Below, piece by piece: positions 14,338 through 42,581 of a stretch of 64,000 nt of DNA (positions are counted from its first letter, which is position 1; each line of letters opens with the position of its first letter). The DNA lies in assembly GCA_963797555.1 (NCBI GenBank), contig CAWCPV010000020.1, forward strand, positions 1 to 64,000. Direction: 5' to 3'. Position numbers and translations under genes: made by a program. The stretch comes from an uncultured Gammaproteobacteria bacterium (lineage in GTDB: Bacteria > Pseudomonadota > Gammaproteobacteria > CAWCPV01). A model generated the notes under the pieces. That model saw only the letters and a list, made by a program, of their open reading frames with translations. It did no database searches and was not told where the DNA came from.

Positions 14338-14365
14338 AAAAAAGGGGCGAACCGCGGTCCGCCCC
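14338..14365 (-). terminator. Rho-independent terminator after the mtrC-like gene
   Basis: Minus strand GGGGCGGACCGCGGTTCGCCCC followed by TTTTTT. Confidence 0.7.
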
Positions 14366-14417
14366 CATCGAGGGTCACAGCTATAGAAGCGCGCTGGACG
14401 CTGCGCTTTTGTTGTTT

Positions 14418-16775: not shown

Positions 16776-16988
16776 ATCCTCCACCCCTGACTTTCGCAGC
16801 CGGCCCATAGTTGGGCACCCTGTGTGCCGTGAAAAATTCGCTGTATCCAAAACGCCTCACCGCGCGCAACTTTGTCAGCGCCGTGGCGTTTGTAGCATAG
16901 GCTCCCCCCGCGGTCAACTTCTCGTTGCATGTTAGGGAACATACACCTGGCAATCTCTCGCCGGCCCGTCGGGCGGGCGGTACTCACC

Positions 16989-17414: not shown

Positions 17415-20084
17415 TTACAGCCCGTTCAACTGGGCCACCGTCGCGCTGGACACGGCCTGGTAGAAGGGCGGGTTATGCACCCCTTCGCTCGCGTCCTGGT
17501 CGAGGAGCGAGTAGTTCCAGTTGGCCTTGGCGAGGATGTCCGTCTGGTTGGACGTGAGGTTCGGCAGATAGTCGGGAATATTCATTGCCGTCCCGCCCGC
17601 CGGCGTCACCTTCGGCTGGCGCCCACCCGTGTAGCTCACCGCCACCCCGTCGCCCTTGAGCTTGGTGACCGCCTGCTGAAAGGCCGCCTGGATGGCATCG
17701 ACCTGTGCCTTCCCGGCTGTTTGTATCTGATCGGCGTTAGGCGACCCCGAGGTGTGGCAATCGATGCAGATGGTCGGGCTGGCCGCAAACTGGTGGTTGG
17801 TACCGCCGCCCTCGATGCTGAGATTCGGGTCCGGCGGGGTCTTCACCATATGGCAAGTGACGCAGGTGTCCGTGACGGTGATATCCCCGGCCTGGACCCC
17901 CGAGTGGGGGGAGCGCTCACCGGTCACGAAGTAAGCATTACGCCCCATGAGCGTATCCCCCTGGCAGGCCTCGTGCGGCGCGCTGAACGAAGTGAGGGTG
18001 CCCCAGTTGGGATCGCCGTCCTCGTGGAGGGTGATCTCCCCATTCGAGGCTTCGCCGTTGCGGGAGTTGTGGCAGGTGATGCACATGGCTCCCTTGCCCA
18101 CGTTGTCGGCTTCGAAGCCTGCCGGGAGCTTCGGCGTGCTGCCGGTCACCCGCGGCTGGGCGTTGGTAGTGGGCCCGCTGGTCGTTCCCGGATCGTGGGG
18201 GTCGTGGCAGACCGCACAGGTCTGGGGCTGGACGGTCTGCGGGGTGAGATTCGCCAGGGCCGGGCTCGCCAGGCTCTCCGGCGTCAGGACGCGCGAGGCG
18301 TCGCCGCCCTCGAGCTGCGTCAACCAGACCAGGAAGCCCTCGCCGGTATGGCAGCCGGCACAACCGTTGCGAACGCTAGTGCTTCCGTCGGCGGCGACGC
18401 TGAACCCCTCGCTAACGGCAACGTTGTAGTTGGCGTGGCCGCTCTCCTGCCACTGCTGGTAGCGCCCGTGACGCAAGGGCTCCCCGTGGCAGCTACCGCA
18501 CGTGTCGGAGGACAGGCTGAAGCGCTCGGGAACATAACCGGAGAACGTCGCATGGGCGGCCGTGTTGTTGGGCCCGTGGCAATTCTCGCACTGGATGTTC
18601 GCCAGGCCCGCCGTCTTCGGGTAGTTCGCCAGGATATTGGTCCAATTGTCGGGGTTGACCACCACCGCGCCGTTGTTGGCGAAGATAGTGCTGAGCATGT
18701 CGGCGTAGTCGCTCTGATCGTCGAAGCCGTTGTTCGCGGCGTTGAGGTCGTAGCCGACCGAATGGCACACGAAGCAGGAGGAGCTGTAGTGGTTGGGGCT
18801 GGGGGCATCCACGTTCTGGGTGAAGATCTCGGCATGCCCGGAGAGCTGCCAGGCGTTGTAGGAAACCACAGCCTCCGGAGCCGAGCTGCCATGGCACGCC
18901 GGGAAGCACGACCCGCTGTTCACCGGTCTGCCATTCGCATCCTGGCCCGTGATCAGGCCTGCCCAGGTGCCCGCGTAGATGGTCAGCACGTCCGTGCCGC
19001 CCTCGGATACGATGTACTTGCCGGCGGCCGTGGGCGTGAACCAGGGGTCCTGGCTTGCCGCGTCGTTGAGCGCGGGGTTACCGGGCCCGCTGACGGTCCA
19101 GGTGTAGCCGCTCTGGGCTTCGGGGATGGGTTTGCCGGTGACTGGATCCGTCGGCGGCGGGTCGGTTGGTTTTGTCCCCTTGAACGCGCCGTGGAGGAGC
19201 ACCCCCGGGCCCACCGGGACATTCTGCACCCCCGTGGTCACGTCGAAGGGAAGCGTCGCGGTGACCGGCACATCCTGGCTGTAGGTCTGCCCGCCGCTGT
19301 CGGTCCCGGTGACGGTCAGCACCGTCGTCCCGGCCTCTGCCAGGTCGAAGGGGGCGCTGCCCATCACCATGTAGCGGTTCAGGACGACGGTCCCGCGCGC
19401 GGGCTCCTGGGTGTCTTCGTCGACGACGATGTTGCCCTCGGAGTCGGTCTCAATCTCGCCGCGCTCTTGGGTGAGGATGCGGAAGTACTCGTTCTTGTAG
19501 ACCGTGGCGGACGGCAAGGTGGCCGTCACGGTTTGGGTGTCGACGTTGGCAAGCTCCAACGGGACGCTGTTGGACTGCGTCCACTGGTACGAGGCCACGG
19601 TGTTGCAGACGAGGGCGGTGGGCGTGGCGGTTACCTGGATCTGGCTGCCGGGGTCGGCAGTCCCGTTGACCGTTGTCTGGAAGGGCTTGGCGGTAGCCGT
19701 GGGAGCCAGCGCGGCGTCGCCCGGGGCCGTCTGACCTGCTGCCACGGTGACGTTGACCGTTTGCGAGGTGAAGTTGGTCGCCGCGATGGTCAGCGTGTAG
19801 TCCCCGGCCGCCAAGGCGGCGAGGGTATAGGCGCCGCTTTGATCCGTTGTGGTGTTGGCGCCGGTGGTGGGACCGGCCGTGACGGTGACGGTCGCCCCGG
19901 CGACCGCAGCCCCCGACGCACCGGCAGCACACTGAGCGTTCGTGACCGTGCCGGCCACGGTCCCGGTGGTTCCGCCTCCGCCACCACTGCTTGCATTGTG
20001 ATGGTTGTTGTTGCACCCGGCGAGCCCGAGCAGGCCGGTCAATAGGGCGGGCAATAAAAGTTGCCACGTGCTGGTGGTTTTCAT
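17415..20084 (-). CDS. Multiheme cytochrome c lipoprotein with Ig/carboxypeptidase-regulatory-like N-terminal domains
   Basis: Lipobox LAGC, Gly/Thr-rich linker, beta-sandwich region; 8 CxxCH plus one CX3CH (CFPACH); AGGAGG RBS. Confidence 0.85.
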   Translation of the reverse strand: MKTTSTWQLLLPALLTGLLGLAGCNNNHHNASSGGGGGTTGTVAGTVTNAQCAAGASGAAVAGATVTVTAGPTTGANTTTDQSGAYTLAALAAGDYTLTIAATNFTSQTVNVTVAAGQTAPGDAALAPTATAKPFQTTVNGTADPGSQIQVTATPTALVCNTVASYQWTQSNSVPLELANVDTQTVTATLPSATVYKNEYFRILTQERGEIETDSEGNIVVDEDTQEPARGTVVLNRYMVMGSAPFDLAEAGTTVLTVTGTDSGGQTYSQDVPVTATLPFDVTTGVQNVPVGPGVLLHGAFKGTKPTDPPPTDPVTGKPIPEAQSGYTWTVSGPGNPALNDAASQDPWFTPTAAGKYIVSEGGTDVLTIYAGTWAGLITGQDANGRPVNSGSCFPACHGSSAPEAVVSYNAWQLSGHAEIFTQNVDAPSPNHYSSSCFVCHSVGYDLNAANNGFDDQSDYADMLSTIFANNGAVVVNPDNWTNILANYPKTAGLANIQCENCHGPNNTAAHATFSGYVPERFSLSSDTCGSCHGEPLRHGRYQQWQESGHANYNVAVSEGFSVAADGSTSVRNGCAGCHTGEGFLVWLTQLEGGDASRVLTPESLASPALANLTPQTVQPQTCAVCHDPHDPGTTSGPTTNAQPRVTGSTPKLPAGFEADNVGKGAMCITCHNSRNGEASNGEITLHEDGDPNWGTLTSFSAPHEACQGDTLMGRNAYFVTGERSPHSGVQAGDITVTDTCVTCHMVKTPPDPNLSIEGGGTNHQFAASPTICIDCHTSGSPNADQIQTAGKAQVDAIQAAFQQAVTKLKGDGVAVSYTGGRQPKVTPAGGTAMNIPDYLPNLTSNQTDILAKANWNYSLLDQDASEGVHNPPFYQAVSSATVAQLNGL

Positions 20085-20691
20085 GCGCCTCCTCCTTCTG
20101 ATGGTTGAGAACGAACCGGCCATTGCCGGCTCTGATGCTCGCTGTCGACGGGTCGACCCAAGGAGCGGCACGCGGGCCGCCTCGGGTCCCCTGTGTCAGG
20201 AAAAAACACAGCCTTCCCTCTACCTATCCCCAGCCTCTATCTATCCCCAGCGCGGGGGGGACAGAAGACAAATCTCCCCCCCATAACCGTACACCGCGAC
20301 ACTCCTGACAAATATTGAACTGACCAGTGGCGTTCTCTCCTCAGCCATGGCCCGCCTCTCCGTCCGTGATCCGAAACAGGCGAATTGGTTGCCACACACC
20401 GAGGATCGGTCCAGCCGTTCCGACAAAGCAATGCGCGTCACGGCCGTGTGTAGCTCCTTCCCGCCCGCCTGCAGGAGGGTAAGCGCTGCGCCACTGTAGA
20501 TTCGCCAGCAAGGTATGTCAATATTTGATGAAGCATACCGAATTTACCAGTTCCAACGCGTCTACCGTGGAGAAATCGAAATCTAGCCCTACCGCGCGCA
20601 GCCGTCAAGGCTGAGGTGAGATTTCTTACATTGGTTCTGAATCAAACGCTTATATTCTAATGTAGCGGCAGCGATACTTGTCGCGAAAAAC

Positions 20692-20721
20692 TTGACAGCC
20701 TTCTTTTGAATTGCTTATAAG
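20692..20721 (+). promoter_or_regulatory. Putative sigma-70 promoter of mtrAB
   Basis: TTGACA-18 bp-TATAAG about 100 bp upstream of mtrA. Confidence 0.55.
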
Positions 20722-20817
20722 TGCCCGAGCAAGGGCTTTTCAGGCGAGCAGGGCACTACCCTGCGGTAATCCCGTCCGACCAGACGTATTGATGCATCTC
20801 GAGGGGAGAGCTTTTCG

Positions 20818-21783
20818 GTGATTCCGCACATCGTCAAGGTATCGTTGGCCGTTGGGCTCTGCGGCTGTCTGGCCATGGGTGCAGGACATGCCACACCGGC
20901 CAGCCCGGCAAATCCTGAAGGCACGCACCCGCAAAGCGCCCAGCCTGCCTACTCCGAAAAGGGCGCCGATACGTGTCTGATGTGTCACGCCAACGCCCAG
21001 GTCTTGCCCATCTTCAAGACCAAGCACGGCAATCGAGGGGATCCTCGTAGCCCTATGGCGGGCCTGCAGTGCGAGGCGTGCCACGGGCCCGGAGGCGAGC
21101 ACGTCAAGGCGATGATGTCCGGCAAGATGGTGCCGCCGCCGGTGACCTTCGGTCCCAAGGGGCACACCCCGCCCGCGGAGCAGGACCAGGCATGCCTGCA
21201 GTGTCACGAGAACCACGAGCGCATCGGCTGGAAGGGGAGCCCCCATCAACAGAACGACGTGACCTGCTCCCAGTGCCACCGCGTGCACGTCGCGAAGGAC
21301 GCGGTGCTGGCGCGCAGCGAGCAGCCGGACGTCTGTTACCGGTGTCACAAGCCCCAACGGGCGGAGAGCTACGAGGCATCGTCCCACCCGATCCGTTACG
21401 GCAAGATGGACTGCAGCGACTGCCACAGCCCCCATGGCTCACCCGGCTCGCATCTGCTCATCAAGGAGACGGTGAACGAGACCTGCTACACCTGTCATGC
21501 GGACAAACGGGGACCGTTCCTGTGGGAGCACGCGCCGGCGTCGGAGAACTGCGAGCTTTGCCACCGGCCGCACGGCTCCAATCACCTGGCACTGCTGAGA
21601 AAGGAACCACCGTACCTGTGCCAGGAGTGCCACGCCGAGATCGGCCATCCCAGTGTGTTCTACAACGGAAATGGGATACCGCCGGTGGGCGCCGACCGCG
21701 CCATGCTCGCCCAGGGGTGCATGAACTGCCACTCGCAGGTGCATGGGTCCAACCATCCGTCGGGGGCCACGCTGCTGCGATGA
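20818..21783 (+). CDS. mtrA: DmsE/MtrA/MtoA-family periplasmic decaheme cytochrome c
   Basis: Signal peptide, 10 CxxCH, KRGPFLWEHAP and CMNCHSQVHGSNHPSG signatures. Confidence 0.93.
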   Translation: MIPHIVKVSLAVGLCGCLAMGAGHATPASPANPEGTHPQSAQPAYSEKGADTCLMCHANAQVLPIFKTKHGNRGDPRSPMAGLQCEACHGPGGEHVKAMMSGKMVPPPVTFGPKGHTPPAEQDQACLQCHENHERIGWKGSPHQQNDVTCSQCHRVHVAKDAVLARSEQPDVCYRCHKPQRAESYEASSHPIRYGKMDCSDCHSPHGSPGSHLLIKETVNETCYTCHADKRGPFLWEHAPASENCELCHRPHGSNHLALLRKEPPYLCQECHAEIGHPSVFYNGNGIPPVGADRAMLAQGCMNCHSQVHGSNHPSGATLLR

Positions 21784-21843
21784 ATTTGGGGAGCCGGCAT
21801 CCCTGAGGTGCGGGCTAACTGAACTGAGGGTAGGGGTGAGAAC

Positions 21844-23979
21844 ATGAAAACGACGATGAGTGCTCGTGCCATCCTCGTCATCGCGTCGTCGGGGTGTTTG
21901 CTGACTCCGGCGCTCGCTCAGGAGTCCGGCGACGCGTCGAACTACGGAGAAATCACCAAGAACTGGAAATGCGAGCTGTGCCCCAAGGAGCAGGGACCGA
22001 GCGGCGAGGTGGAAGGGGGCGTCGGTTACGTCTCGGAGGACTCCGCCAAATTCGGGCAGTATACCGGCCTGAACGAGCAAGGACCCTACTTCATCGGCAA
22101 TGGGAATGTCCGCTACCTCACGGGGGGCGCGTGGTATTGGAACATGGACGTTACCAACCTCGGGCTGAGCTCGCGGGATATCGGGTTCGAGGGCGGCAAG
22201 CAAGGAAGCTACACGGGCTTCGTGACATACGACCAGATCCCCGACAACCTGTGGGATACCACGCAAACGCCGTTCCTCGGGGTGGGGGGCAACACGCTCA
22301 CACTCCCCGACAACTGGGTTCCCGCGAGCACCACGCAGGGCATGACGGCCCTTCCCGAAACGCTCAGGAAAGTCAACGTCGACACCCAGCGCAACACCGT
22401 CGCCACCGGCTTCTCCTACATTCCGCTCAAGGACTGGGAAGTCAAACTCCGCTACAGCCACGACCATCAGGACGGCCTGCAGATCATGGGGGGGGCCATT
22501 GGCGGCTCCTTCGGCACGGCCCGCTCCGCCATCCTGCTGGCGCCGGTCGACTACGGCACCGACCAGGTGAACCTCGATGCGTCTTACACCGGCAAACAGT
22601 TCCAGGGACAGATCGGCTACTACGGGTCGTTCTTCACCGACGGCAACAAGTCGCTCACCTGGCAGAATCCCTTCACCGACCCGACCGCTCCCAACGCCCT
22701 CGGGCGCTCGGCTTTGCCGCCCGACAACCAGTTCAATCAGTGGTTCGTACGCGCGGGGTACGATGTGCTTCCGAGCACGCGGGTGAACGGCTACTTTTCG
22801 TATGGCAGGATGTCACAGGACTCGAGCTTCCTCCCCTACACCACGAACCCGACCCTGCCCACGCAGCCGCTGCCCACGGATTCGCTGGGCGGTCAGGTCG
22901 ACGTGATGGCGGCCAAGTTGAACGTCGCGTCCAGGCCGCTTCAGAAGCTTCGGCTGAACGCGGAGTGGCAATACAACGAGCGCGACAACTACACGTCCCA
23001 GAACGTGTACGATTATGTGGTTGCCGACACGGTGATCTCGCCTAATCCCCAGACCAACCCGACGTACAGCTTCCGCCAGAACCTCCTCAAGCTGGACGCG
23101 GCCTATTCGCTGCCCATGCGCACCACGCTCACCGGCGGCGTGGACTACGAGAAGTACCAGCGCACCCAGCAGGAGGTGAATTCGACCAACGACTGGACCT
23201 TCCGAATGAAGCTGAAGACCGTGCCCCACGACATGGTCAATCTGTTCCTGGACTACGCCCACTCCAATCGCACCGGAACCAACTACAACACCGTCGACAC
23301 CATCGTCCCGCCGGAGAACCCGCTGCTGCGCAAGTACTACATGGCCGACCGCGGCCGCAACCTAGTGGGGACACTGCTTACCGTGACTCCGATCGACAGG
23401 ATCAGCATGCAGTTGGGGGTCGACTATGCCCTCGACGACTACCGAAACTCCAGCGTCGGGCTGACCAGCGACGAGGACATCACGTACACCGTGGACCTCT
23501 CCTACGTGCCGTTGGAGCGGCTCACCACGCACGTCTTCTACACTCGCGAAGCCATCACGTCGAAACAGGCCGGAAGTGCGGCCTTCGCCGCGCCGAACTG
23601 GTTCGCGACGAATGAAGATACCGTCAACAGCGTGGGCGCTGGGTTCAAGGTCGCGGCCATCAAGGACAAGCTCGACTTCAGCGTGGACTACGTTTGGTCG
23701 CAGTCCACCGGACAAATCAATCTGTCGAGCCCAGACCTACTTTTTGCCCCTCTCCCCGACCTGACCACCAATCTGCACAGCGTGCGGGTCCAGGGCAAAT
23801 ACAAGCTCAAGGACAATCTGTCCGTCAAGCTCGCGTACTGGTACCAGAATTACGATTCCAGCGACTGGGCGCTGAACAACGTGGCGCCGAATACCATTCC
23901 GCAGGTGCTGAGTCTGGGCCAGCAGCCGTACAAGTACAACGACAACGTCGTCGGCCTCTCAGTCCTTTATCATTTCTAG
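21844..23979 (+). CDS. mtrB: MtrB/PioB-family outer membrane beta-barrel
   Basis: N-terminal WKCELCP, FGQYTGL, PVDYGTD, PDNQFNQ, LRKYYMADR, C-terminal YHF. Confidence 0.93.
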   Translation: MKTTMSARAILVIASSGCLLTPALAQESGDASNYGEITKNWKCELCPKEQGPSGEVEGGVGYVSEDSAKFGQYTGLNEQGPYFIGNGNVRYLTGGAWYWNMDVTNLGLSSRDIGFEGGKQGSYTGFVTYDQIPDNLWDTTQTPFLGVGGNTLTLPDNWVPASTTQGMTALPETLRKVNVDTQRNTVATGFSYIPLKDWEVKLRYSHDHQDGLQIMGGAIGGSFGTARSAILLAPVDYGTDQVNLDASYTGKQFQGQIGYYGSFFTDGNKSLTWQNPFTDPTAPNALGRSALPPDNQFNQWFVRAGYDVLPSTRVNGYFSYGRMSQDSSFLPYTTNPTLPTQPLPTDSLGGQVDVMAAKLNVASRPLQKLRLNAEWQYNERDNYTSQNVYDYVVADTVISPNPQTNPTYSFRQNLLKLDAAYSLPMRTTLTGGVDYEKYQRTQQEVNSTNDWTFRMKLKTVPHDMVNLFLDYAHSNRTGTNYNTVDTIVPPENPLLRKYYMADRGRNLVGTLLTVTPIDRISMQLGVDYALDDYRNSSVGLTSDEDITYTVDLSYVPLERLTTHVFYTREAITSKQAGSAAFAAPNWFATNEDTVNSVGAGFKVAAIKDKLDFSVDYVWSQSTGQINLSSPDLLFAPLPDLTTNLHSVRVQGKYKLKDNLSVKLAYWYQNYDSSDWALNNVAPNTIPQVLSLGQQPYKYNDNVVGLSVLYHF

Positions 23980-24115
23980 GGCGCTGAGGGCCATTGTCCG
24001 TGCCGTCCGGTTCGACCGATTTCCTGCGTCGCCGGGCGGCGGGTTTTTGATTGTCGCTAAACGGGGTCAATCAAGAGCTGTTGTCCCTGATATCGAAACG
24101 GTGGAGGAGGATTGA

Positions 24116-24703
24116 ATGAAGATCGACCAACGAGCGTTGCGCGCAGCATTATTGGCCTGCGCCGCGGCCGCAGCTCCGGCCGTCCTCGCCGCCGGGCCTT
24201 CGGCGGAGATGTTGAGCCAGCCCTGCGCGGGGTGTCACGGCGTCAACGGCGTCAGTGCCGGAGACAGCATCCCGAGCATCGCGGGCATGCCCGAGTCCTA
24301 TCTCGAGCAGGCCATGACCCAGTTCAAGGATGGCAAGCGCTACAGCTCCATCATGGGCCGCATCGCGAAGGGCTATAGCGCCGACGAGATCAAGGCGATG
24401 GCCGGATTCTTCGCGAAGCAGAAGTGGGTCTCCCCGAAACAGAAGGTCGATGTCGCCCTGGTGGAGCAGGGCAAGAAGATACACGGAGCCAAATGCGCCT
24501 TGTGCCATCAAGATAATGGCCGCTCCCAGACGATGAGCGGGCGCTTGGCGGGGCAGTGGCGCGAATATCTGGAGATCCACTTCCACGAGTGCAAGGAGCG
24601 GGCTTCGGGTGTTCCGCAGCCCGCCCCGATGCAGCAGGCCATCGATCAGCTCAATGCCGAGGACATGAAGGCCCTCGCCAACTTTTACGCCAGCCAGCGC
24701 TAA
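24116..24703 (+). CDS. fccA: Diheme cytochrome subunit of flavocytochrome c sulfide dehydrogenase
   Basis: Signal peptide, CAGCH and CALCH, IPSIAGM, SSIMGRIAKGYS; directly upstream of fccB. Confidence 0.85.
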   Translation: MKIDQRALRAALLACAAAAAPAVLAAGPSAEMLSQPCAGCHGVNGVSAGDSIPSIAGMPESYLEQAMTQFKDGKRYSSIMGRIAKGYSADEIKAMAGFFAKQKWVSPKQKVDVALVEQGKKIHGAKCALCHQDNGRSQTMSGRLAGQWREYLEIHFHECKERASGVPQPAPMQQAIDQLNAEDMKALANFYASQR

Positions 24704-24716
24704 CGAGGGGACCCCG

Positions 24717-26000
24717 ATGCCCAATATCTCACGCAGGAACTTCATCAAGACAGCGGCGGGTCTGGCCGCCGTTGGGACTTTCGGAGCCGGCTTTCCGTCC
24801 GTGGGCCGGAGCGCCGCCAAGGGAAGGGTCGTTATCGTCGGGGCCGGCTACGGCGGCGCCATCGCCGCCAGATACCTGCGCATGGAGGACCCCGGCCTGG
24901 ACGTCGTGCTCGTCGAGCAGAACGCGAAGTACGTGTCTTGCCCCCTCAGCAACGAGGTCCTCAGCGGCGAGCGCACCCTGGCGTCCCTCACCTTCGGTTT
25001 CCAGGGCCTCGCTTCTCACGGCGTGAAGGTGCTCCACGACAAGGTCACCGGGATCGACCCCCAGGCACGCAAGGTGCGCACGCACGGCGGCAAGACACTT
25101 CCCTATGACCGCCTTGTGCTTTCGCCCGGCATCGCCTTCAAGTGGGGGGCCATCGAGGGCTACGATGAAGCAGCGAGCGAGATCATGCCTCACGCCTGGG
25201 AGGCAGGGCCGCAGACGGTCCTGCTGCGCAAGCAGATCGAGGCGATGAAGGATGGCGGGACGGTGATCATCGCCGCCCCGCCGAACCCGTACCGCTGCCC
25301 GCCGGGGCCTTATGAGCGCGCTTGCCAGATCGCATACTACTTCAAACAGCACAAGCCCAAGTCGAAGGTGATCATCCTGGACGCCAAAGACGCGTTCGCC
25401 AAGCAGCCCCTGTTCCAGCAAGGGTGGGAGCAGGAGTACCCGGGAATGATTAGCTGGGTGTCCGGAGCGAACGACGGCAAAGTCCTGCGCGTGGACCCCA
25501 AGGCCATGAAGGTGTTCACCGAGTTCGGGGAGCAAATCGGCGACGTGGTGAACATCATTCCGCCCGAGCAAGCCGCCGAGATCGCGACCTCCGCAGGGCT
25601 TGCGGACCCAAGCGGCTGGTGCCCAGTGGATCCGAAGACCTTCGAATCCACCCTGCAGAAGAACATCCACGTCATCGGAGACTCTTGCATCGCCGGCGCC
25701 ATGCCCAAGTCCGGGTACTCAGCGAACTCCCAGGCCAAGGTCTGCGCGGCGGCTATCATTGCGCTGCTCGAGGGCAAACCGGTCGGTGAGCCGTCCTATA
25801 TCAATACCTGCTACAGCCTGGTCGCCCCGGACTACGGGATTTCGGTCGCTGCCGTTTATGCGATGGCCGATGGCAAGATTGACTCGGTCAAGGACTCCGG
25901 TGGCGTGTCTCCCAAGGAGGGCACCGCGTGGGACCGGTACGTCGAGGCGGTTTACGCCAGAAGCTGGTACAAGAACATCACCACCGAGATGTTCGGCTGA
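24717..26000 (+). CDS. fccB: Flavocytochrome c sulfide dehydrogenase flavoprotein (FccB/SoxF)
   Basis: Tat SRRNFIK, GAGYGG FAD motif, YVSCPLSN, RCPPGPYERA, MPKSGYSANSQAK, NTCYS. Confidence 0.92.
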   Translation: MPNISRRNFIKTAAGLAAVGTFGAGFPSVGRSAAKGRVVIVGAGYGGAIAARYLRMEDPGLDVVLVEQNAKYVSCPLSNEVLSGERTLASLTFGFQGLASHGVKVLHDKVTGIDPQARKVRTHGGKTLPYDRLVLSPGIAFKWGAIEGYDEAASEIMPHAWEAGPQTVLLRKQIEAMKDGGTVIIAAPPNPYRCPPGPYERACQIAYYFKQHKPKSKVIILDAKDAFAKQPLFQQGWEQEYPGMISWVSGANDGKVLRVDPKAMKVFTEFGEQIGDVVNIIPPEQAAEIATSAGLADPSGWCPVDPKTFESTLQKNIHVIGDSCIAGAMPKSGYSANSQAKVCAAAIIALLEGKPVGEPSYINTCYSLVAPDYGISVAAVYAMADGKIDSVKDSGGVSPKEGTAWDRYVEAVYARSWYKNITTEMFG

Positions 26001-26097
26001 AGGCAATTCCCGGACTGCGCAGATGCTGGCACGACCTCGCCGTGCCGCGGAGACGGGCTTGCACCACGTAGGATAGTCATCGGAGGGAAATGGTCTG

Positions 26098-26679
26098 ATG
26101 AGACTCATCAAGAATCTACTGGCCATCGTGGGCCTGATCGCCATTGTCGCCGCGGGCGTCACCTACTACGAAGCACACAGGTTCCTGTCACAGCTCGATC
26201 CCGGTGCGCTGGGGACGTACGCGGATTTTGCGCGCAAGCTGGTGGCCACTAAGGACCCCGGCAGCGCGATGGTCTGGTCCGTTCCGGTCGACGAGGGCCT
26301 GGGCGTGGATGAAGTCAAGGAGTCCATGAAGAGCATCGCCGCCAACCACAACTTCCTCTTCGTGGGCGAATCACCGTTCTACAAGCAGGCCGAGGCCGTC
26401 ACGGGGAAACCCTACCGCTACATGAGCTTCCTGTCCTTCTGCGACGCCCGCGTCGGCATGGAGATGGCCGACTACAACAATGCCTACACCGCCTTCATGC
26501 CCTGCCGCATCGCCCTGGTGCAGGACGCGAAGAGCGGCAGGCTCTCCCTGTGGAGCCTGGACCTGGACATGATGATCTATGGCGGCAAGCCGCTGCCGCC
26601 GCATCTCAAGGAGGGCGCCCTGCGCGTCAGGAACACGATCCGCGAGATCATGGAAGGCGCAGCCCACGGGAGCTTCTAG
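26098..26679 (+). CDS. DUF302-domain protein with N-terminal membrane anchor
   Basis: SFC...FMPCRIALV motif; the family is often next to sulfur-oxidation genes. Confidence 0.75.
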   Translation: MRLIKNLLAIVGLIAIVAAGVTYYEAHRFLSQLDPGALGTYADFARKLVATKDPGSAMVWSVPVDEGLGVDEVKESMKSIAANHNFLFVGESPFYKQAEAVTGKPYRYMSFLSFCDARVGMEMADYNNAYTAFMPCRIALVQDAKSGRLSLWSLDLDMMIYGGKPLPPHLKEGALRVRNTIREIMEGAAHGSF

Positions 26680-26893: not shown

Positions 26894-27155
26894 TGATTCA
26901 CACACAGATGTTGGGCGGCTTTTGAGACGCTGCCCGTTTGTGCCGTTTGGCAGAACGCGCGGCTGGCGCAGGCGGTTGGGGGGCAGGGATGGTAGGGACG
27001 GGGCAGCATCGGTGCATTTCGATTATAAGAAAATAATATAGCGACTATTCGCTAAATGGCCTAGTCAAATACTCCGTCCTTTTCTACGGTTAGTGAAGGC
27101 CCGCGGGCAGGACCCGTGGGCAGCACCTTCCCAGCGCTTGGAGCGAGAGAGTCCC

Positions 27156-28760
27156 ATGGCCAGCGGCAGCGCCCGGCGCCTCACCGACGAGTTCCAGATC
27201 ACCGCAGCCGGTGCGGGCGAGGAGCGCCTACTGTCGCCCGAGGCCTGCGCCTTCCTGGTGGGGCTGCACGAGACCTTCGCCGAGCGCGTGGCCGAGCGGT
27301 TGCGCGCCCGGGCGGAGCGCCAAGCACAGTTCGACGCCGGGCAGTTGCCGGATTTTCTGCCCGAGACGCGCTGGGTGCGGGAATCCGCTTGGCAGATCGC
27401 CGCCATCCCCCGCGACCTCCTGGACCGGCGGGTGGAGATTACCGGCCCGGTCGAGCGCAAGCAGGTCATCAATGCGCTCAACAGCGGTGCCAAGGTGTAC
27501 ATGGCCGACTTCGAGGATGCGCACTGCCCCACCTGGGAGGCCACGCTCGCGGGGCAGATCAATCTGCACGAGGCGCTGCGCGGCACCATCGAGTATGTCT
27601 CGCCCGCAGGCAAGCGCTATCGGCTCGGCGAGGCGCCGGCCACCCTGGTGGTCCGGCCGCGGGGCTGGCACTTGGTGGAGAAGCATTTTCTCGTGCGCGG
27701 CCGACCCATCCCCGCGGGACTCTTCGACTTCGGGCTGTATTTCTTTCACAACGCCCGTTACCTCTTGGAGCACGGCAGCGGTCCCTATTTCTACCTCCCC
27801 AAGCTAGAGAGTCACCGGGAGGCGCGGCTGTGGAACGAGGTGTTCAACCTGGCCCAGGATCGGCTCGGGCTGCCGCGCGGCAGCATCAAGGCGACCGTAC
27901 TCATCGAGACCCTGCCGGCGGCCTTCGAGATGCACGAGATCCTCTATGAGCTGCGCGAGCACGTGAGCGGCCTCAACTGCGGGCGCTGGGACTACATCTT
28001 CAGCTTCATCAAGAAGCTGCGCAGCCGCCCCGACTGCGTGCTACCGGAGCGGGCGCAGCTCACCATGCGCACCCACTTCCTGCGCAGCTACTCCCGGCTG
28101 CTCATCCAGACCTGTCACAGGCGCGGCGCCCACGCCATGGGCGGCATGGCCGCCCAGATCCCGGTACGAGACGACGCGCAGGCTAACGCGCGCGCCTTTG
28201 CCCAGGTGCGGGCCGACAAGGAGCGCGAGGCGAGCGACGGGCACGATGGCACCTGGGTCGCCCACCCGGACCTCGTGGCGGTGGCGCAGGAGGTGTTCGA
28301 CACGGTCATGCCGGGTCCCCACCAAATCGAGCGGCGGCAGGAGGAGATGCCCATCGGGGCGAGCGACCTGCTGCGCGTGCCGCCCGGCACCATCACCGAG
28401 CAGGGCGTGCGCGGCAACGTCAGCGCGGCACTTCGTTACCTCGCGGCGTGGCTCGGCGGACGCGGCGCGGTGCCCATCCATCACCTGATGGAAGACGCCG
28501 CGACGGCCGAGATCGCCCGCGCCCAGTTGTGGCAGTGGATACGCCACCCCGCGGGGGTGTTGGAGGACGGACGGCGCGTCAGCGTCGAGATGTTCCGAAA
28601 CGCGCTCTCCGATGATCTCGCGTGTATCGCCCAGGAGCTGGGACGAGACGCGATCGAGCAGGGACATTTCCTGCGCGCCGCAGCGCTGCTGCGGGTCATC
28701 GTGGAAAGCGAGCCGTTCGAGGAGTTCCTGACCCTGCCGGCCTATGAGCAGCTCCCCTGA
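27156..28760 (+). CDS. aceB: Malate synthase A
   Basis: [44 protein letters not shown]. Confidence 0.95.
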
Positions 28761-28835
28761 GTTCAGCCGGCTTTCACTAAAACAACCACGACGCGTCGTC
28801 CAGGCAGGCGACGCGCACCACCGGAGGAGAGCAGC

Positions 28836-30164
28836 ATGCAGCGAGGCCCCCTGATAGCCCAGCTCGAGCGAGACTGGGCCCACAACCCGCGCTGGAAGAC
28901 GGTGCGCCGCGCCTATACGGCGCAAGACGTGATCCGGCTGCGCGGCTCCCGACCGGCCGAGCACACTCTCGCCCGACGCGGCGCAGAGCGGCTGTGGGAG
29001 CTGTTGAACGGCGCCGCCGAGCGCGGCTACGTGAGCTGCCTCGGTGCACTCACGGGAGGCCAGGCGGTGCAGCAGGCCAAGGCCGGCATCCAGGCGATCT
29101 ACGTCTCGGGCTGGCAGGTCGCCGCCGATGCCAACACCTCCGAGACCATGTACCCGGACCAGTCACTCTATCCCCACGACTCGGTGCCCGCCCTGGTGCG
29201 GCGCATCAATCATGCCTTCCAGCGCGCCGACGAGATCCAGTGGGCGCGAGGCATCGAGCCCGGAGCGCCGGGGTGCGTGGACTACTTCCTGCCCATCGTG
29301 GCGGATGCCGAGGCGGGATTCGGCGGCGTATTGAACGCCTTCGAGCTGATGAAGAGCCTCATCGCGGCGGGCGCCGCCGGGGTGCACTTCGAGGACCAGC
29401 TCGCCTCGGCCAAGAAGTGCGGGCACATGGGCGGCAAGGTGCTGGTGCCCACCCAGGAGGCGCTGCACAAGCTCACCGCCGCCCGACTGGCCGCCGATGT
29501 CATGGGGGTGCCCACCCTGCTCATCGCCCGCACCGATGCCGAGGCGGCGTGCCTGCTGACTTCGGACGTGGACGAGCGCGACCGGCGTTTTCTCACCGGG
29601 GAGCGCACCGCCGAGGGCTTTTTCCACACCCGCGCCGGCCTGGAGCAGGCCATCGCCCGGGCGCTCTGCTATGCCCCCTATGCCGATCTCCTGTGGTGCG
29701 AGACCAGCACCCCCGATCTGCTCTTCGCGCGCCGCTTCGCCGAGGCGCTCAAGCGGGAGTATCCGGATCTGATCCTGGCCTACAATTGCAGCCCCTCCTT
29801 TCACTGGAAGAAGAACCTCGACGATGTGAGCATCGCGCAATTCCAGCGCGAGCTGGGCGCCATGGGCTATGCCTACCAGTTCATCACCCTGGCCGGTATC
29901 CACAGCATGTGGCTCAACATGTTCGAGCTGGCCGAGCACTATGCCCGGGAAGGCATGAGCGCTTATGTGAACCTGGTGCAGCAACGCGAGTTTGCCGCCG
30001 CCAGCCGCGGCTACACCTTCGTCGCGCACCAGCAAGAGGTCGGGGCCGGGTATTTCGATGACGTCACGACCGTCATCCAGGGCGGGACCTCCTCGCTTAC
30101 CGCGCTCACGGGCTCCACGGAACAGGCGCAGTTCGAGCCCGCCCGTCACGCCGCAGCCGGCTGA
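28836..30164 (+). CDS. aceA: Isocitrate lyase
   Basis: KKCGHMGGK active-site motif, [14 protein letters not shown]. Confidence 0.96.
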
Positions 30165-30201
30165 GCCGCTCCCCGATCTGGCGCCCAGCGACCCCCCACC
30201 C

Positions 30202-32097
30202 ATGAATGCCCCCCCGCAACGCCAATCCACGGCTCCAGAGCCCTCGCAGAACACCCCAACCCCTGGGCACGGCTGGGATCGGCGGGCAGCCGCACGCCCT
30301 GCGGAGATCGCGCGGGCAGACCCCAACCCCATCGCCCAGGCCATCCTGAGCGGCTTCGAGCGGCACTATCAACGGCTCCGTGAGATCACTGCGGGCGCGC
30401 GCCAGCGCTTCGAGGACGCGAACTGGAAGGCGGTGCAGGAGGCGTCCCGGGAGCGCGTCGATTACTACGATCGAGGTGTTGGCGAGACCATCCAGGAGCT
30501 GCGAGACGGCATCGGGATCACCGCGCTGGACGAGGTGCTCTGGCAGCGTGTCAAGGTCGACTACGTGCACCTGCTTTACGAGCACAGGCAGCCGGAGCTC
30601 GCCGAGACCTTCTACAACACCGTGTTCTGCCGACTCTTCGAGAGAAAGTATTACAACAACAAGAACATCTTTGTGCGGCCCGCGGTGTCCACCGAGCATA
30701 TCGAGATAGAGTCCGATACGCCTATCTACCGCGTTTACTATCCAGCCCGGGACGGGTTCTACCGGGTCATCTCCGAGATTCTCGGGAGCTTCGGCTTTGG
30801 CCTGCCCTTCGCCGACCGTCGGCGCGATATCCGCAACCTCTTGCGCGCCGTCCGACAGCATTGTCCATCCGCTGCCGAGCGTCAGCAGGACTTTCACATC
30901 GCAGTCTTGAGCTCCCCCTTTTTCCGCAACAAGGCCGCATACATCATCGGCAAGGTGGTGAACGGCTCGGAGGAGACGCCCTTCGGGGTGCCGGTCCTGA
31001 ACAACGAGCACGGAGGGCTCTACGTCGATGCACTGCTGTTCGGGGAATCCGATCTCGCCAATGTCTTCAGCTTCGCACGGGCCTATTTCATGGTGCAGAC
31101 GGAGGTCCCCTCGGCGGTGGTGGAGTTCCTGCTTCCGCTCCTTCCCTGCAAGACGAAGGCAGACCTCTATACGGCCATCGGCTTATGGAAGCAGGGCAAG
31201 ACGGAATTCTATCGCGATTTCCTCCACCACCTCAGGCATTCCAGCGACGCCTTCGTCGCCGCCCCGGGCGCCAAAGGAATGGTGATGACCGTCTTTACAC
31301 TGCCTTCCTATCCCTACGTGTTCAAGGTTATCAAGGACACCTTCCCGCCTCCCAAGGAGATGACGCGCCAGCAGGTCAAGGACAAATATCAGTTGGTTAA
31401 GCGCCATGACCGGGTCGGGAGGATGGCGGACTCTCTCGAATACTCCGATGCCGCCTTCCCACTGCAGCGCTTTACGCCCAAGCTTCTGGAAGATCTCTTG
31501 GCCGAGGCGGGGTCCAGCGTTGAGATCGAACGCGAGCAGATCATCATCAAGCACCTCTACATCGAGCGGCGCATGGCGCCTCTCAACGTCTACATCCAGT
31601 TTGCCGACGACGAGGAGCTGAGGCGCATCATCGGTGACTATGGGGATGCGATCAGGGAGCTGGCCGCCGCCAACATCTTTCCCGGCGACATGTTCCTGAA
31701 AAACTTTGGGGTCACGCGCCAGAGACGTGTGGTGTTCTACGACTACGACGAGATCTGCTACCTGACCGAGTGCCGCTTCAGGAACATACCGGCTGCGCCC
31801 TATCCAGAATACGAATTCTCGGACGAGCCATGGTATTCCGTGGGGCCGAAAGACGTCTTCCCGGAAGAGTTCGCCACCTTTCTGCTGAGCGATCCCAGGG
31901 TGCGCGAGGCATTTATCGAGCTGCACCGTGAGCTGCTGGACGCGGACTACTGGACGCAAAAGCAGGCAGCGGTTTCCGAGGGGTGTTTCGAGGATGTCTT
32001 CCCGTATCCGGAAGCCAAGCGGTTCGCGGCATCGCCGAGCGTTCCCGAACCGGCGCCCGATCCCGAGCCGATGGCGGCGGCCGGGGCGTGCGGATGA
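30202..32097 (+). CDS. aceK: Isocitrate dehydrogenase kinase/phosphatase
   Basis: ELAETFYN, APGAKGMVM, HDRVGRMAD, NIFPGDMFLKNFGVTR, FYDYDEI; start uncertain. Confidence 0.93.
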   Translation: MNAPPQRQSTAPEPSQNTPTPGHGWDRRAAARPAEIARADPNPIAQAILSGFERHYQRLREITAGARQRFEDANWKAVQEASRERVDYYDRGVGETIQELRDGIGITALDEVLWQRVKVDYVHLLYEHRQPELAETFYNTVFCRLFERKYYNNKNIFVRPAVSTEHIEIESDTPIYRVYYPARDGFYRVISEILGSFGFGLPFADRRRDIRNLLRAVRQHCPSAAERQQDFHIAVLSSPFFRNKAAYIIGKVVNGSEETPFGVPVLNNEHGGLYVDALLFGESDLANVFSFARAYFMVQTEVPSAVVEFLLPLLPCKTKADLYTAIGLWKQGKTEFYRDFLHHLRHSSDAFVAAPGAKGMVMTVFTLPSYPYVFKVIKDTFPPPKEMTRQQVKDKYQLVKRHDRVGRMADSLEYSDAAFPLQRFTPKLLEDLLAEAGSSVEIEREQIIIKHLYIERRMAPLNVYIQFADDEELRRIIGDYGDAIRELAAANIFPGDMFLKNFGVTRQRRVVFYDYDEICYLTECRFRNIPAAPYPEYEFSDEPWYSVGPKDVFPEEFATFLLSDPRVREAFIELHRELLDADYWTQKQAAVSEGCFEDVFPYPEAKRFAASPSVPEPAPDPEPMAAAGACG

Positions 32098-32392: not shown

Positions 32393-34873
32393 GTGAGTAT
32401 GACGACCAAGCTGGGCACCCGACGTACCGTGAACTGGCGTACTCACCACGGCGCCGATCCAAGGCCGGAGTGCGTGATTTCGCTCGCCCATCTGGGCGCG
32501 TCCGACGTGGCTCGGGTAGGGGGAAAAAACGCGTCGCTCGGCGAGATGATCGCACAGCTCGGCTCGGCAGGGGTCCGAGTGCCGGGAGGCTTTGCCACGA
32601 CGGCCAAGGTCTACCGGGATTTTCTGGCCCAGGGTGGACTCGACCGCCGCATCTACGCAGTGCTGGACACCTTGGACACAGAGGACGTGAAGGCCTTGGC
32701 GGCCAGTGGCGAGGCCATCCGCCAGTGGATCGTGCAGACACCATTTCCGGTGGCGCTGGAAGAGGCGATCGCCGAGGCGTACCAGACCATGCAACTGGCC
32801 GTCCCCGGGGGATTCGCCGTGGCCGTGCGCTCCTCGGCGACCGCGGAGGATTTGCCCGAGGCCTCCTTTGCCGGTCAGCAGGAGACTTTCCTCAACGTGC
32901 GCGGGCTGCCAGAGACCCTGGCCGCCATCAAGGACGTGTTCGCGTCTCTCTTCAACGACCGAGCCATCGCCTACCGTGTCCACCAGCGCTTCGCCCATCG
33001 CAATGTGGCGCTCTCGGCCGGTGTGCAGCGCATGGTCCGCAGCGACATCGGTGCGAGCGGGGTGATGTTCACCCTGGACACGGAGACCGGGTTCCGTGAC
33101 GCCGTGTTGATTACGGCAAACTATGGGCTAGGCGAAACCGTGGTCCAAGGTCAGGTCAATCCGGACGAGTTCTACGTATACAAGCCGTCTCTCGCCCAGG
33201 GACGCAAGGCGATCCTGCGCCGCCGCCTCGGCGCCAAGGCCATCCGCATGGTCTACAGCAGGACGCTGGGCCACGCCAAGGCCACAGCCGTTGAGTCGGT
33301 GCCCGATGGCGAGCGACTGCTGTTTTGCATTACCGATGCCGAGGTCGAGGAGTTGGCCCGCCAGGCAATCGTTATCGAACAGCACTACGGGTGTCCCATG
33401 GACATCGAGTGGGCGCGGGACGGCGAAGACGGCCGGCTGTACATCCTCCAGGCCCGTCCGGAAACAGTGCAGAGCCGGGCGAGCAGGATGAGCCGGGTGA
33501 TTGAGCACTACCAGCTCAAGGAGAGGTCGCCGGTGTTGTGCAGCGGACGCGCCGTTGGCCAGAGGATCGGCGCGGGCACGGCTCGCGTCATCCTCAACGT
33601 GAAGGAGATGGGGCGGGTGCGAGCAGGCGACGTGCTCGTCACGGATATGACCGACCCGGACTGGGAGCCCGTGATGAAGCGGGCCTCGGCCATCGTCACC
33701 AACCGCGGTGGCCGCACCTGCCATGCTGCCATCATCGCCCGCGAGCTCGGCATACCCGCGGTGGTCGGCTGCGGGGATGCTACGACCGCCGTCGGCGACG
33801 GTGCCGAGGTGACAGTGTCCTGCGCCGAGGGCGACACCGGCTTCATCTACGGAGGCATACTGGGCTTCGAGATTGGACGCACCGAGCTCGACCGGATGCC
33901 CGAGATCCCGGTGAAGATCATGATGAACGTGGGCAGCCCGGAACAGGCATTCGCCTTTGCGGATCTGCCCAATGCGGGGGTCGGACTGGCGCGCGTGGAG
34001 TTCATCATCGCCCGCGCCATCGGCGTGCATCCCCAGGCGCTGCTCGAGTATGACGCCCTGCCGCCGGAACTGCGCGCCGAGATCCACCCACACATCGCAG
34101 CCTATGCAGACCCGGTGAGCTTCTACGTGGAGAAGCTCACCGAAGGTATCGCCACCATCGCAGCGGCCTTTGCGCCGAACCCGGTCATCGTGCGCCTGTC
34201 CGACTTCAAGTCCAACGAATACGCCAACCTGCTGGGGGGCAAACGCTACGAGCCCGACGAGGAAAACCCCATGCTGGGCCTTCGAGGAGCGGGCCGTTAC
34301 GTGGCGGAGTGTTTCCGCCCCAGCTTCGAGCTGGAGTGCCGGGCGCTCAAGAAGGTACGCGAAGACATGGGTCTCACCAACGTGCAGGTCATGGTCCCCT
34401 TCGTGCGCACGGTGGCTCAAGGCAAGGCGGTCGTCGAGGCGCTCGCCGCGAACGGACTACGCCGGGGGGAGGATGGACTCCAGGTCATCATGATGTGCGA
34501 AGTGCCGTCCAATGCCATCCTGGCCGAGCAGTTTCTGGAGTCGTTTGACGGGTTCTCGATCGGCTCCAACGACCTGACACAGCTTACCCTCGGCCTGGAT
34601 CGGGACTCTGCTTTGGTGGCGGATCTGTTCGACGAGCGCGACGATGCGGTCAAGTTCTTGCTGGCCCGCGCCATCCAGGCCTGCCGCACCAAGGGCAAGT
34701 ACGTAGGCATCTGCGGTCAGGGCCCCTCCGACCATCCGGATCTCGCCCTCTGGCTGCTGGAGCAGGGTATCGAGAGCATGTCCCTGAACCCCGATACGGT
34801 CGTCAAGACTTGGCTGTACCTCGCTCAGCAGGCACTCAGCAGCGAGAATATGAGCCGATCCCAGAGCTCGTAA
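32393..34873 (+). CDS. ppsA: Phosphoenolpyruvate synthase
   Basis: [54 protein letters not shown]. Confidence 0.96.
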
Positions 34874-35206: not shown

Positions 35207-36495
<1,289 letters not shown>

Positions 36496-42561: not shown

Positions 42562-42581
42562 CTACCGGAGAGATTCAGTCC

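Follow-up and report, generated by a model that had tools for sequence, protein, structure and literature searches.

The 64-kb stretch of DNA analysed here (the window) carries five open reading frames on the + strand, mtrA, mtrB, fccA, fccB and a DUF302 gene, whose identities, order and coordinates agree with the initial annotation of this locus and are borne out by profile and structure matches. The product of mtrA (20818-21783) contains 10 CXXCH motifs, matches the DmsE/MtrA decahaem model TIGR03508 at 299.9 bits (cutoff 192.2) and 6r2q_A at 317 bits, and is 47-58% identical to 31 MtrA proteins from the loci surveyed below. After a gap of 60 bp it is followed by mtrB (21844-23979), which encodes a protein that matches PF11854 at 559.8 bits, TIGR03509 at 517.7 bits (cutoff 240) and 6r2q_B at 275 bits, and the N-terminal CXXC pair of this protein (C43/C46) is invariant among 26 aligned sequences.

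Upstream of mtrA lies a further, divergently transcribed part of the locus, which was overlooked when the cluster was first described as the five genes alone. A 646-bp divergent intergenic region (20172-20817), with two promoter-like sites on the - strand (consensus matches only) and a 17-nt tandem repeat at 20217-20250, separates mtrA from the gene of a 918-aa multihaem lipoprotein (17415-20171, likely start 20084, - strand). This protein has 8 CXXCH motifs, 1 CXXXCH motif and an Ig-like CarboxypepD_reg domain, and it matches 298 representative clusters at E<=1e-30, while no solved relative was found for its haem part. On the same strand, an 810-aa ORF (14418-16850) encodes a decahaem lipoprotein of the OmcA/MtrC family with 10 CXXCH motifs and the lipobox LTGC, which scores 549.4 bits against TIGR03507 (cutoff 209.3), 180 bits against Pfam MtrC-MtrF_II-IV and 140.7 bits against the MtrF structure 3pmq_A, also matches OmcA-like_N, and is predicted to reside on the cell surface. 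In addition, gspD (11768-13966; TIGR02517, 580.5 bits), gspE (10149-11792; TIGR02533, 714.5 bits) and gspF (8935-10149; TIGR02120, 436.6 bits) are encoded on the - strand, all above their cutoffs. A type II secretion system has a role in exporting MtrC/OmcA in Shewanella, and by analogy gspDEF are likely to provide the export route for the surface cytochromes of the window. Taken together, these genes would make up a rearranged MtrCAB-type outer-membrane conduit, with mtrA-mtrB on the + strand and, on the divergent side, an OmcA/MtrC-type decahaem protein, a lipoprotein with about nine haems and the type II secretion system expected to carry both to the cell surface.

The second module begins 136 bp after mtrB, a gap that had been measured correctly. 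The dihaem cytochrome c subunit is encoded by fccA (24116-24703, + strand; 2 CXXCH; 118.3 bits to 3vrd_A and 114.6 bits to 1fcd_C), and 13 bp further downstream fccB (24717-26000, + strand) encodes the TAT-exported FAD subunit, which matches 5n1t_A at 507.8 bits and 1fcd_A at 476.1 bits and carries the FCSD_central (PF21706, 173.8 bits), FCSD-flav_bind (PF09242, 91.9 bits) and TAT_signal (PF10518, 26.2 bits) domains, all above their cutoffs. Cys75, Cys194 and Cys365 of FccB align with cysteines of 1fcd_A; the corresponding residues of 1FCD, Cys42, Cys161 and Cys337, serve to bind FAD covalently and to form the redox-active cysteine pair. With its high scores against solved flavocytochrome c chains, its TAT signal and all three key cysteines in place, FccAB is canonical. 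Similarly to the FccAB systems of Allochromatium vinosum (1FCD), Thermochromatium tepidum (3VRD) and Thioalkalivibrio paradoxus (5N1T), it combines a dihaem FccA with a closely spaced gene for an exported FccB, and it differs from them in its neighbourhood only, since it follows mtrB and precedes a membrane-anchored DUF302 protein.

The DUF302 gene (26098-26679, + strand), 97 bp downstream of fccB, encodes a protein with an N-terminal hydrophobic anchor that matches PF03625 at 26.2 bits (cutoff 23). Its closest relatives are 98% and 75% (P0174) identical, and 820 relatives of about 60% identity occur in named sulfur oxidisers, including Beggiatoa-like bacteria, Thiorhodovibrio and Magnetococcales. 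DUF302 genes are described within sox clusters in the available text of an earlier report (PMC5037610), and the protein is a companion of fccAB. FccA has five relatives at 92, 89, 88, 83 and 83% identity; its relatives carry the source name "sulfide dehydrogenase cytochrome subunit" and bear no sign of an association with Mtr. The unit fccA-fccB-DUF302 is a canonical sulfide dehydrogenase unit as found in sulfur oxidisers, in which FccB would oxidise periplasmic sulfide and pass the electrons through the two haems of FccA to soluble c-type cytochromes.

Between the two modules, a terminator-like stem-loop with a T-run occupies positions 24002-24049 of the + strand. The sequence GGGTTTTTG comes after the stem-loop itself (24002-24040), for which a dG of -22.3 kcal/mol is predicted, and a generic terminator scan likewise marked 24027-24041, although terminator-like sites are not enriched overall in the region (8 versus 6.8 +/- 2.5 in shuffles). 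The initial annotation was therefore right about the presence of a hairpin and T-run here, but not in calling it weak. Given this terminator-like hairpin after mtrB, transcription of mtrAB and of fccAB is probably separate, at least in part. On the other hand, the genes are co-oriented with a short gap, and the stretch from the hairpin to fccA yielded no promoter-like site, so that fccAB could rely on read-through from mtrAB.

Among all ORFs of at least 70 aa in the window, CXXCH motifs occur solely in the OmcA-like gene, the 918-aa cytochrome, mtrA and fccA, and none of these CXXCH ORFs is a pdsA or a cymA/MtoD-type gene. The absence of a CymA/MtoD-type partner, first claimed for the cluster, thus extends to the entire 64 kb, and fccA is the sole small cytochrome c gene within it. 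Oxidase or bc1 genes were not found in the window either. GC3 is even over both modules (0.82-0.88), which means that composition shows no sign of a recent foreign origin.

Whether mtrAB and fccAB belong together in other genomes, a survey that the initial annotation had proposed, was addressed with the 80 top-ranking loci among 439 MtrB matches, one genome per species, in which MtrB is 36-46% identical to that of the window. Homologues of FccB and of DUF302 were each found in 0 of the 80 loci by tblastn (E<=1e-5), and in 55 of the loci the sequence continues for 3.5 kb or more past mtrB. In the MtrB tree, the window forms a four-row clade with L035, L042 and L054 (SH-aLRT 100), and in these nearest loci mtrB is followed by unrelated genes (CYTH/TPR, ccmEFH and corrinoid genes among them), with neither pdsA nor fccAB nearby. 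Such variable flanks fit the movement of mtrCAB as a mobile module, as described in the available text of Baker et al. 2022 (PMC8805035). The adjacency of mtrAB and fccAB is a single observation and is not conserved in the 80 loci. Among the matches listed, MtrB has one relative at 92% identity and the next at 46%, against five at 83-92% for FccA and two at 98 and 75% for DUF302, which suggests that fccA-DUF302 travels without mtrB. The relative with 92% MtrB, 92% FccA and 98% DUF302 identity, in which the pieces lie on short contigs, may share the layout of the window.

The arrangement of the Mtr genes is also unusual. The locus resembles Shewanella MtrCAB (6R2Q) and its gammaproteobacterial relatives, as far as these are covered by the available text of Baker et al. 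2022 (PMC8805035), in the 10 haem motifs of MtrA, the CXXC of MtrB and the presence of an OmcA/MtrC-family lipoprotein, and furthermore in the closely spaced mtrA-mtrB order and the nearby T2SS genes. An MtrC-like gene is co-stranded with mtrAB in 54 of the 54 surveyed loci that have one (upstream in 53, downstream in 1), whereas it is divergent in the window only. In further contrast to these systems, the window adds the 918-aa multihaem lipoprotein, homologues of which were found in 0 of the 80 Mtr loci, lacks pdsA and cymA, and has fccAB-DUF302 in the place after mtrB.

The known periplasmic partner of MtrA is PdsA, the sister family of which is FccA (PMC8805035 for PdsA, available text). 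The sister relationship and the position of fccA as the lone small cytochrome c gene are points that favour the initial annotation. In the survey, a PdsA-like dihaem cytochrome, homologous to FccA, was found in 21 of the 80 MtrB loci and in 16 of the 38 with enough flank, and a CymA/NapC-type tetrahaem gene stands beside it in 5 of 16 such loci examined. We use the label PdsA-like since the 18 Mtr-linked dihaem proteins tested reach 134-173 bits with the PdsA model NF049874, the cutoff of which is 330. The one protein of this kind that was checked against solved structures matches 1fcd_C at 94.7 bits, and its best match is a solved FccA. Directly 3' of mtrB, a PdsA-like gene is found in 3 of the 67 loci that extend 1 kb or more beyond mtrB, L004, L040 and L064, at gaps of 104, 141 and 103 bp, respectively, and no hairpin comparable to that of the window was found in these gaps. 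As PdsA-like genes can hold the slot after mtrB, a substitution of FccA for PdsA is conceivable; however, the nearest MtrB relatives lack pdsA as well, so its absence is typical of the subclade and provides no evidence of a swap.

The FccA of the window is homologous to the PdsA dihaem shuttle of Aeromonas and Vibrio Mtr pathways (NF049874), with the same size and two-domain build, but its gene precedes fccB, whereas in the surveyed loci none of the PdsA-like genes is followed by an fccB. Its score on the PdsA model is 97.9 bits, below its scores to solved FccA (118 and 115), and in a maximum-likelihood tree of 72 rows it falls inside the FccA clade, split from the 21 Mtr-linked rows with 100/99 support. 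The possibility that it is itself a PdsA or an Mtr-adapted cytochrome was rejected by the PdsA-model score and the clade placement.

These comparisons bear on the proposal, made in the initial annotation, of a periplasmic route from sulfide to extracellular acceptors. In a dedicated outward route, electrons would pass from sulfide through FccB, FccA, MtrA and MtrB to the surface decahaems, which would hand them to Fe(III)/Mn(IV) oxides, electrodes or partner cells, and FccA would have assumed the role of PdsA. The full-length homology of FccA to PdsA, the best match of a PdsA-like protein to a solved FccA and the similar spacing of the PdsA-like genes in L004, L040 and L064 speak for such a route, as do the lack of any other small cytochrome c, pdsA or cymA gene in the window, the co-orientation of the genes, with no promoter-like site found ahead of fccA, and the complete surface module formed by the OmcA/MtrC-like gene and the T2SS. 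Against it would weigh that the haem potentials of FccA may lie above those of Shewanella MtrA and that the route would conserve no energy; since all of its steps are periplasmic or extracellular, it would be of use for removing sulfide or balancing redox state more than for conserving energy. A dedicated route of this kind is not upheld by the linkage, absent from all surveyed loci including the three nearest relatives, by the deep position of FccA in the canonical clade, or by the strong terminator-like hairpin that stands between the units, and we consider it unlikely.

Sulfide-dependent respiration of iron oxides occurs in nature, and the concept that FccAB and MtrCAB could drive it is already published and not new. 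In the available text of a Nature 2025 paper (PMC12545173), "MISO" gene sets are described in which Sqr/FccBA and MtrCAB are proposed as one route for sulfide-dependent iron(III) oxide respiration, which is the same pair of systems and the same overall reaction as inferred for the window. The gene set is a proposal there, and it concerns co-occurrence within genomes (two uncultured Rhodoferax), in contrast to the adjacency in the window. A literature search for the mtrAB-fccAB layout returned no paper that describes it, but only papers that list the genes separately, in accordance with the earlier statement that no characterised operon with such a layout is known.

Electrons might instead flow inward, with Mtr taking them from Fe(II), reduced minerals or cathodes, similarly to the MtoAB/PioAB homologues, and with FccA or its cytochrome c pool collecting them from both MtrA and FccB for delivery to a terminal oxidase or bc1; the genes for these two lithotrophic inputs would be placed together for co-expression. 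FccAB normally gives electrons to soluble cytochromes c, which counts in favour of a shared carrier, and the window has no quinol dehydrogenase (CymA/NapC) gene of the kind needed for outward flow. Moreover, judging by record titles, most of the MtrB relatives belong to lineages of sulfur oxidisers, such as Thiogranum, Ectothiorhodospiraceae, Thiohalomonas and Acidiferrobacterales, and MtrCAB is noted in cultivated thiosulfate oxidisers in the available text of PMC12545173. The surface OmcA/MtrC-type decahaems and T2SS, however, are hallmarks of outward, mineral-reducing systems, and the CymA-like and PdsA-like genes of related loci are typical of outward extracellular electron transfer. Given also that the linkage is not conserved and that the window offers no oxidase or bc1 genes, this shared-carrier reading is very unlikely.

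The best explanation, to which we assign a probability of roughly 0.6, is that two known periplasmic redox modules have lately become neighbours. The neighbourhood looks recent, lineage-specific and possibly accidental, and unlike a conserved pathway from sulfide to minerals. The co-orientation, the short intergenic gap, the lone small cytochrome c gene, the PdsA-like genes that take the place after mtrB in three loci, the even GC3 and the close relative that may share the layout are points against this two-module reading. Under it, both modules could still meet via the periplasmic cytochrome c pool, and direct transfer from FccA to MtrA is plausible, given the homology of FccA to PdsA and the lack of any other small cytochrome c gene in the window.

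It is quite unlikely that FccA has replaced PdsA as the partner of MtrA, either by wiring the sulfide dehydrogenase straight to the conduit or by making FccA a hub for sulfide and extracellular donors. If it had, the locus would connect sulfide with minerals, electrodes or partner cells in three steps that all lie outside the cytoplasm, or would feed electrons from sulfide and from extracellular donors into one FccA hub, and PdsA shuttles and FccA subunits would be interchangeable members of one cytochrome family.

The five open reading frames that the initial annotation had read as a possible route from sulfide to extracellular acceptors are all present on the plus strand, exactly where it had placed them, with gaps of 60, 136, 13 and 97 bp in order, and GC3 is even over both the Mtr and the Fcc modules (0.82-0.88). 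The mtrA gene (20818-21783) encodes ten CXXCH motifs; its product matches the DmsE/MtrA decahaem model at 299.9 bits, where the cutoff is 192, and chain A of the Shewanella MtrCAB structure 6R2Q at 317 bits, while the mtrB product (21844-23979) reaches 559.8 bits on Pfam MtrB_PioB, 517.7 bits on TIGR03509 and 275 bits to 6r2q_B, and has an N-terminal cysteine pair (C43/C46) that is invariant across 26 aligned family members. In the PDB, the MtrA and MtrB chains of 6R2Q bear the labels 'Cystathionine beta-synthase' and 'Uncharacterized protein', which are misleading depositor or database names. Among solved flavocytochromes c, the cytochrome subunits of 3VRD and 1FCD are matched by the dihaem protein encoded by fccA (24116-24703) at 118 and 115 bits, and the flavoprotein encoded by fccB (24717-26000) has a TAT signal, both FCSD-specific Pfam domains and scores of 508 and 476 bits to 5N1T and 1FCD. 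Its residues Cys75, Cys194 and Cys365 line up with three cysteines of 1FCD, which we take to be those of covalent FAD attachment and the redox-active pair. Judged by sequence, the two genes read as a textbook fccAB pair. The DUF302 protein (26098-26679) lies above the Pfam cutoff and has a hydrophobic anchor at its start.

The conduit had been described as mtrAB, and these genes are real; however, it is not a bare MtrAB, as surface cytochromes and gspDEF upstream had been overlooked. A divergent unit on the opposite strand is separated from mtrA by a 646-bp spacer and includes a 918-aa multihaem lipoprotein (17415-20171, -, likely start 20084) with the lipobox LAGC, a CarboxypepD_reg Ig-like domain, eight CXXCH motifs and one CXXXCH, as well as an OmcA/MtrC-family decahaem lipoprotein (14418-16850, -; 549 bits on TIGR03507 and 141 bits to MtrF). 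The type II secretion genes gspD, gspE and gspF (8935-13966, opposite strand to mtrA) are likely the export system for these surface cytochromes, and with both beside mtrAB the conduit therefore amounts to a complete MtrCAB-type module. The haem part of the 918-aa cytochrome gave no named family and no solved relative, and 298 representative clusters match the protein at E<=1e-30, which places it in a widespread uncharacterised family. Among haem-motif ORFs of at least 70 aa, the 64 kb hold four cytochrome genes only, and the initial statement that a CymA/MtoD-type partner is missing holds, as no CymA/NapC, MtoD or PdsA gene was found across the 64-kb window.

Between the 918-aa cytochrome gene and mtrA there is a 17-nt tandem direct repeat, CCTCTACCTATCCCCAG (20217-20250, two copies, 94% identical), a possible target of a regulator within the divergent promoter region. 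Near the end of the secretion genes lies a DDE transposase fragment of the ISAZ013 type (7015-7707, -), covering profile positions 1-108 of 308 only. Directly after DUF302 come the glyoxylate-shunt genes for malate synthase, isocitrate lyase and AceK (27093-32097, +), which are unrelated to the redox modules, followed by PEP synthase (32393-34873) and citrate synthase (35207-36481). Further along, a cupredoxin-like protein gene and an FTR1-family iron permease gene (42229-44147, +) are likely an iron-uptake pair. In addition, a CRISPR array with a 36-nt repeat (51660-53755) is found beside a Cas2-Cas1 fusion (49072-50469) and a reverse transcriptase ORF (50180-51316), with a Cas_APE2256 protein encoded at 56659-57795 and RAMP-family genes at 58154-63748. 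Together they resemble a type III system whose adaptation genes are RT-associated.

Whether the two modules form a shared system was addressed with an MtrB alignment including 25 relatives as the query against one genome per species, which yielded 439 confirmed MtrB matches. The best 80 loci (36-46% MtrB identity to the window), mostly from gamma- and betaproteobacterial MAGs including Thiogranum, Ectothiorhodospiraceae, Thiohalomonas, Acidiferrobacterales and Burkholderiales, were taken with as much as 10 kb of sequence to either side and compared with the window proteins by tblastn. In these 80 loci, mtrA stands immediately upstream of mtrB in 73 and an MtrC-like gene is present in 54, and neither an FccB nor a DUF302 homologue was detected in any (0/80 each); at least 3.5 kb, enough room for fccAB, lay 3' of mtrB in 55 of them. 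Within the reach of the survey the linkage is therefore unique to this genome, an outcome that the initial annotation had itself set as counting against its proposal, and the apparent mtrAB-fccAB operon is not a conserved system. The Mtr cluster itself is a rearranged, unusual form of its kind and carries an additional multihaem lipoprotein that is uncharacterised: its MtrC-like gene is divergent from mtrAB, whereas in the same best 80 of 439 loci that gene shares the strand of mtrAB in 54 of 54 cases (53 upstream, one downstream), and no homologue of the 918-aa cytochrome was found by tblastn (0/80). One surveyed locus, L001, carries a full-length MtrB homologue (10001-12085, 43% identity); it lies on the chromosome of a complete MAG, and neither MtrA nor MtrC homologues were detected in the 10 kb to its left and right.

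The survey also revealed what does accompany these conduits. FccA homologues adjoin the Mtr genes in 21 of the best 80 loci, all of them dihaem and 30-36% identical to the window FccA (a four-haem match at L078 was left out); where the flanks extend at least 6 kb upstream and 1 kb downstream, such a gene occurs in 16 of 38 loci. Most diverge from the mtrC start, and in L004, L040 and L064 the gene lies directly 3' of mtrB, with gaps of 104, 141 and 103 bp. All 18 scanned proteins (three with long N-terminal ORF extensions were omitted) score 134-173 bits on the NCBIfam model of PdsA, a dihaem cytochrome that serves the Aeromonas/Vibrio Mtr pathway as its periplasmic shuttle; this is below the strict cutoff of 330, hence the name PdsA-like. 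When a single PdsA-like protein was compared with solved structures, FccA was the top match (94.7 bits), and the two are therefore regarded as sister families. A PdsA-like cytochrome is the small partner conserved in this MtrCAB clade. In 5 of 16 inspected PdsA-like loci, a NapC/NirT (CymA)-type tetrahaem protein of 200-234 aa adjoins, and the result is the CymA-PdsA-MtrCAB set of Baker et al. 2022 (PMC8805035); the accessible sections place pdsA in all of group 2 and most group 3 Gammaproteobacteria, and the word 'sulfide' is absent from the paper. In L064, from a Steroidobacteraceae MAG, mtrA, mtrB, the PdsA-like gene, a NapC/CymA-like tetrahaem gene and rquA (rhodoquinone biosynthesis methyltransferase, 290.6 bits) follow in a row on one strand (8948-14390), which hints at a low-potential quinone feeding the Mtr pathway.

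The window dihaem protein belongs on the other side of this divide. Maximum likelihood was used to place 72 dihaem proteins in a tree, 51 of them relatives no shorter than 160 aa and 21 from the loci (excluding L078). In it the 21 Mtr-linked rows split from the window FccA clade with support of 100/99, and the window FccA lies well inside a group whose source records call them sulfide dehydrogenase cytochrome subunit. A PdsA orthologue was ruled out by this tree and by the scores (97.9 bits on the PdsA model vs 118/115 bits to flavocytochrome c), and the protein is a canonical FccA.

The outward route put forward initially would here have FccA stand in for PdsA and bring sulfide electrons to the conduit. 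A complex prediction for MtrA (residues 26-321) and FccA (26-195) scored 0.03 against a mark of 0.32, which, run without controls, speaks neither for nor against binding. On reasoning alone, the outward route would conserve no energy, as all of its steps are external to the cytoplasmic membrane. We consider this route unlikely. An MtrB tree (68 rows, quick method, 13 loci with <90% coverage left out) joins the window MtrB with L035, L042 and L054 from the best 80 of 439 loci in a four-row clade (SH-aLRT 100), nested in a gammaproteobacterial clade of 30 rows, 16 of which carry a nearby PdsA-like gene; the window MtrB is on a long branch, and its grouping with L054 is possibly a long-branch artefact. 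The flanks of these three, the nearest MtrB loci among the best 80, contain no PdsA-like gene, fccAB or sulfur gene, and the genes 3' of mtrB differ among them. Absence of pdsA is therefore a trait of the MtrB subclade of the window, and an in-place swap of pdsA for fccA is weakened.

FccA relatives (P0122-P0126) are 92, 89, 88, 83 and 83% identical and DUF302 relatives 98 and 75%; for MtrB, one relative reaches 92% and the next 46% among the matches listed. The records of FccA P0123 (89%) and DUF302 P0174 (75%) each give a longest contig of 53,573 nt, and none of the 120 MtrB matches listed gives that length or the 20,822 nt of an 83% FccA, which indicates that fccA-DUF302 is a unit moving without mtrB. 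The relative at 92-98% (MtrB P0001, FccA P0122 and DUF302 P0173), whose pieces are on contigs of 5225, 2104 and 3143 nt, may have the same layout. A length of 3059 nt is given for both MtrB relative P0029 and FccA relative P0124; P0029 is 83% identical to the L004 MtrB, whose gene is followed by a PdsA-like gene, not fccA, so chance is the likelier explanation. Named sulfur oxidisers (Beggiatoa-like bacteria, Thiorhodovibrio and Magnetococcales) carry DUF302 relatives at ~60% identity, and the accessible part of an earlier paper notes DUF302 genes within sox clusters (PMC5037610).

The junction between the modules carries a stem-loop (24002-24040, dG -22.3 kcal/mol) followed by GGGTTTTTG, and a generic terminator scan marked the inner part of the stem-loop; no comparable hairpin was found in the mtrB-pdsA gaps of L004, L040 and L064. 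Over the entire region, terminator-like sites are not enriched. The fold of the whole 136-nt gap is not significantly structured (z = -1.87), which leaves the local hairpin as its one conspicuous feature. An Rfam scan of the window gave no matches. Since this terminator-like hairpin is followed by 66 nt up to fccA in which no sigma-70-like promoter was found, fccAB expression may depend on read-through or on another promoter type. No convincing insertion-scar repeats flank fccAB-DUF302.

The best-supported reading, to which we assign a probability of roughly 0.6, is that two known modules have recently become neighbours. The first would be an MtrCAB conduit in rearranged form, together with surface cytochromes and a secretion system of its own, and the second a standard fccAB-DUF302 sulfide dehydrogenase delivering electrons to the periplasmic cytochrome c pool, with cross-talk between the two possible. 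Direct electron transfer from FccA to MtrA is biochemically plausible, since the known partner of MtrA comes from the family that is sister to FccA. An inward flow, in which MtrA and FccB would both deliver electrons to FccA or to that pool, seems even more doubtful than the outward route.

A literature search returned no paper describing an mtrAB-fccAB cluster, in agreement with the initial remark that no characterised operon has this layout. Microbial sulfide oxidation coupled to iron(III) oxide reduction has recently been shown (Nature 2025, PMC12545173). As a second gene set that might serve, the accessible portion of that paper presents Sqr/FccBA with MtrCAB, present in the genomes of two uncultured Rhodoferax, and it also mentions MtrCAB among cultivated oxidisers of thiosulfate. 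The concept of FccAB with MtrCAB is already published, and the window is therefore new in the arrangement of known parts only. If FccA passes electrons to MtrA, no simpler genetic basis would be known for coupling biological sulfide oxidation to the reduction of minerals or electrodes, and the five genes would make a compact cassette for bioelectrochemical strains that sense or remove sulfide. On present evidence, the main value of the cluster lies in the non-conserved apparent operon, the PdsA-like partner and the unusual Mtr variant.
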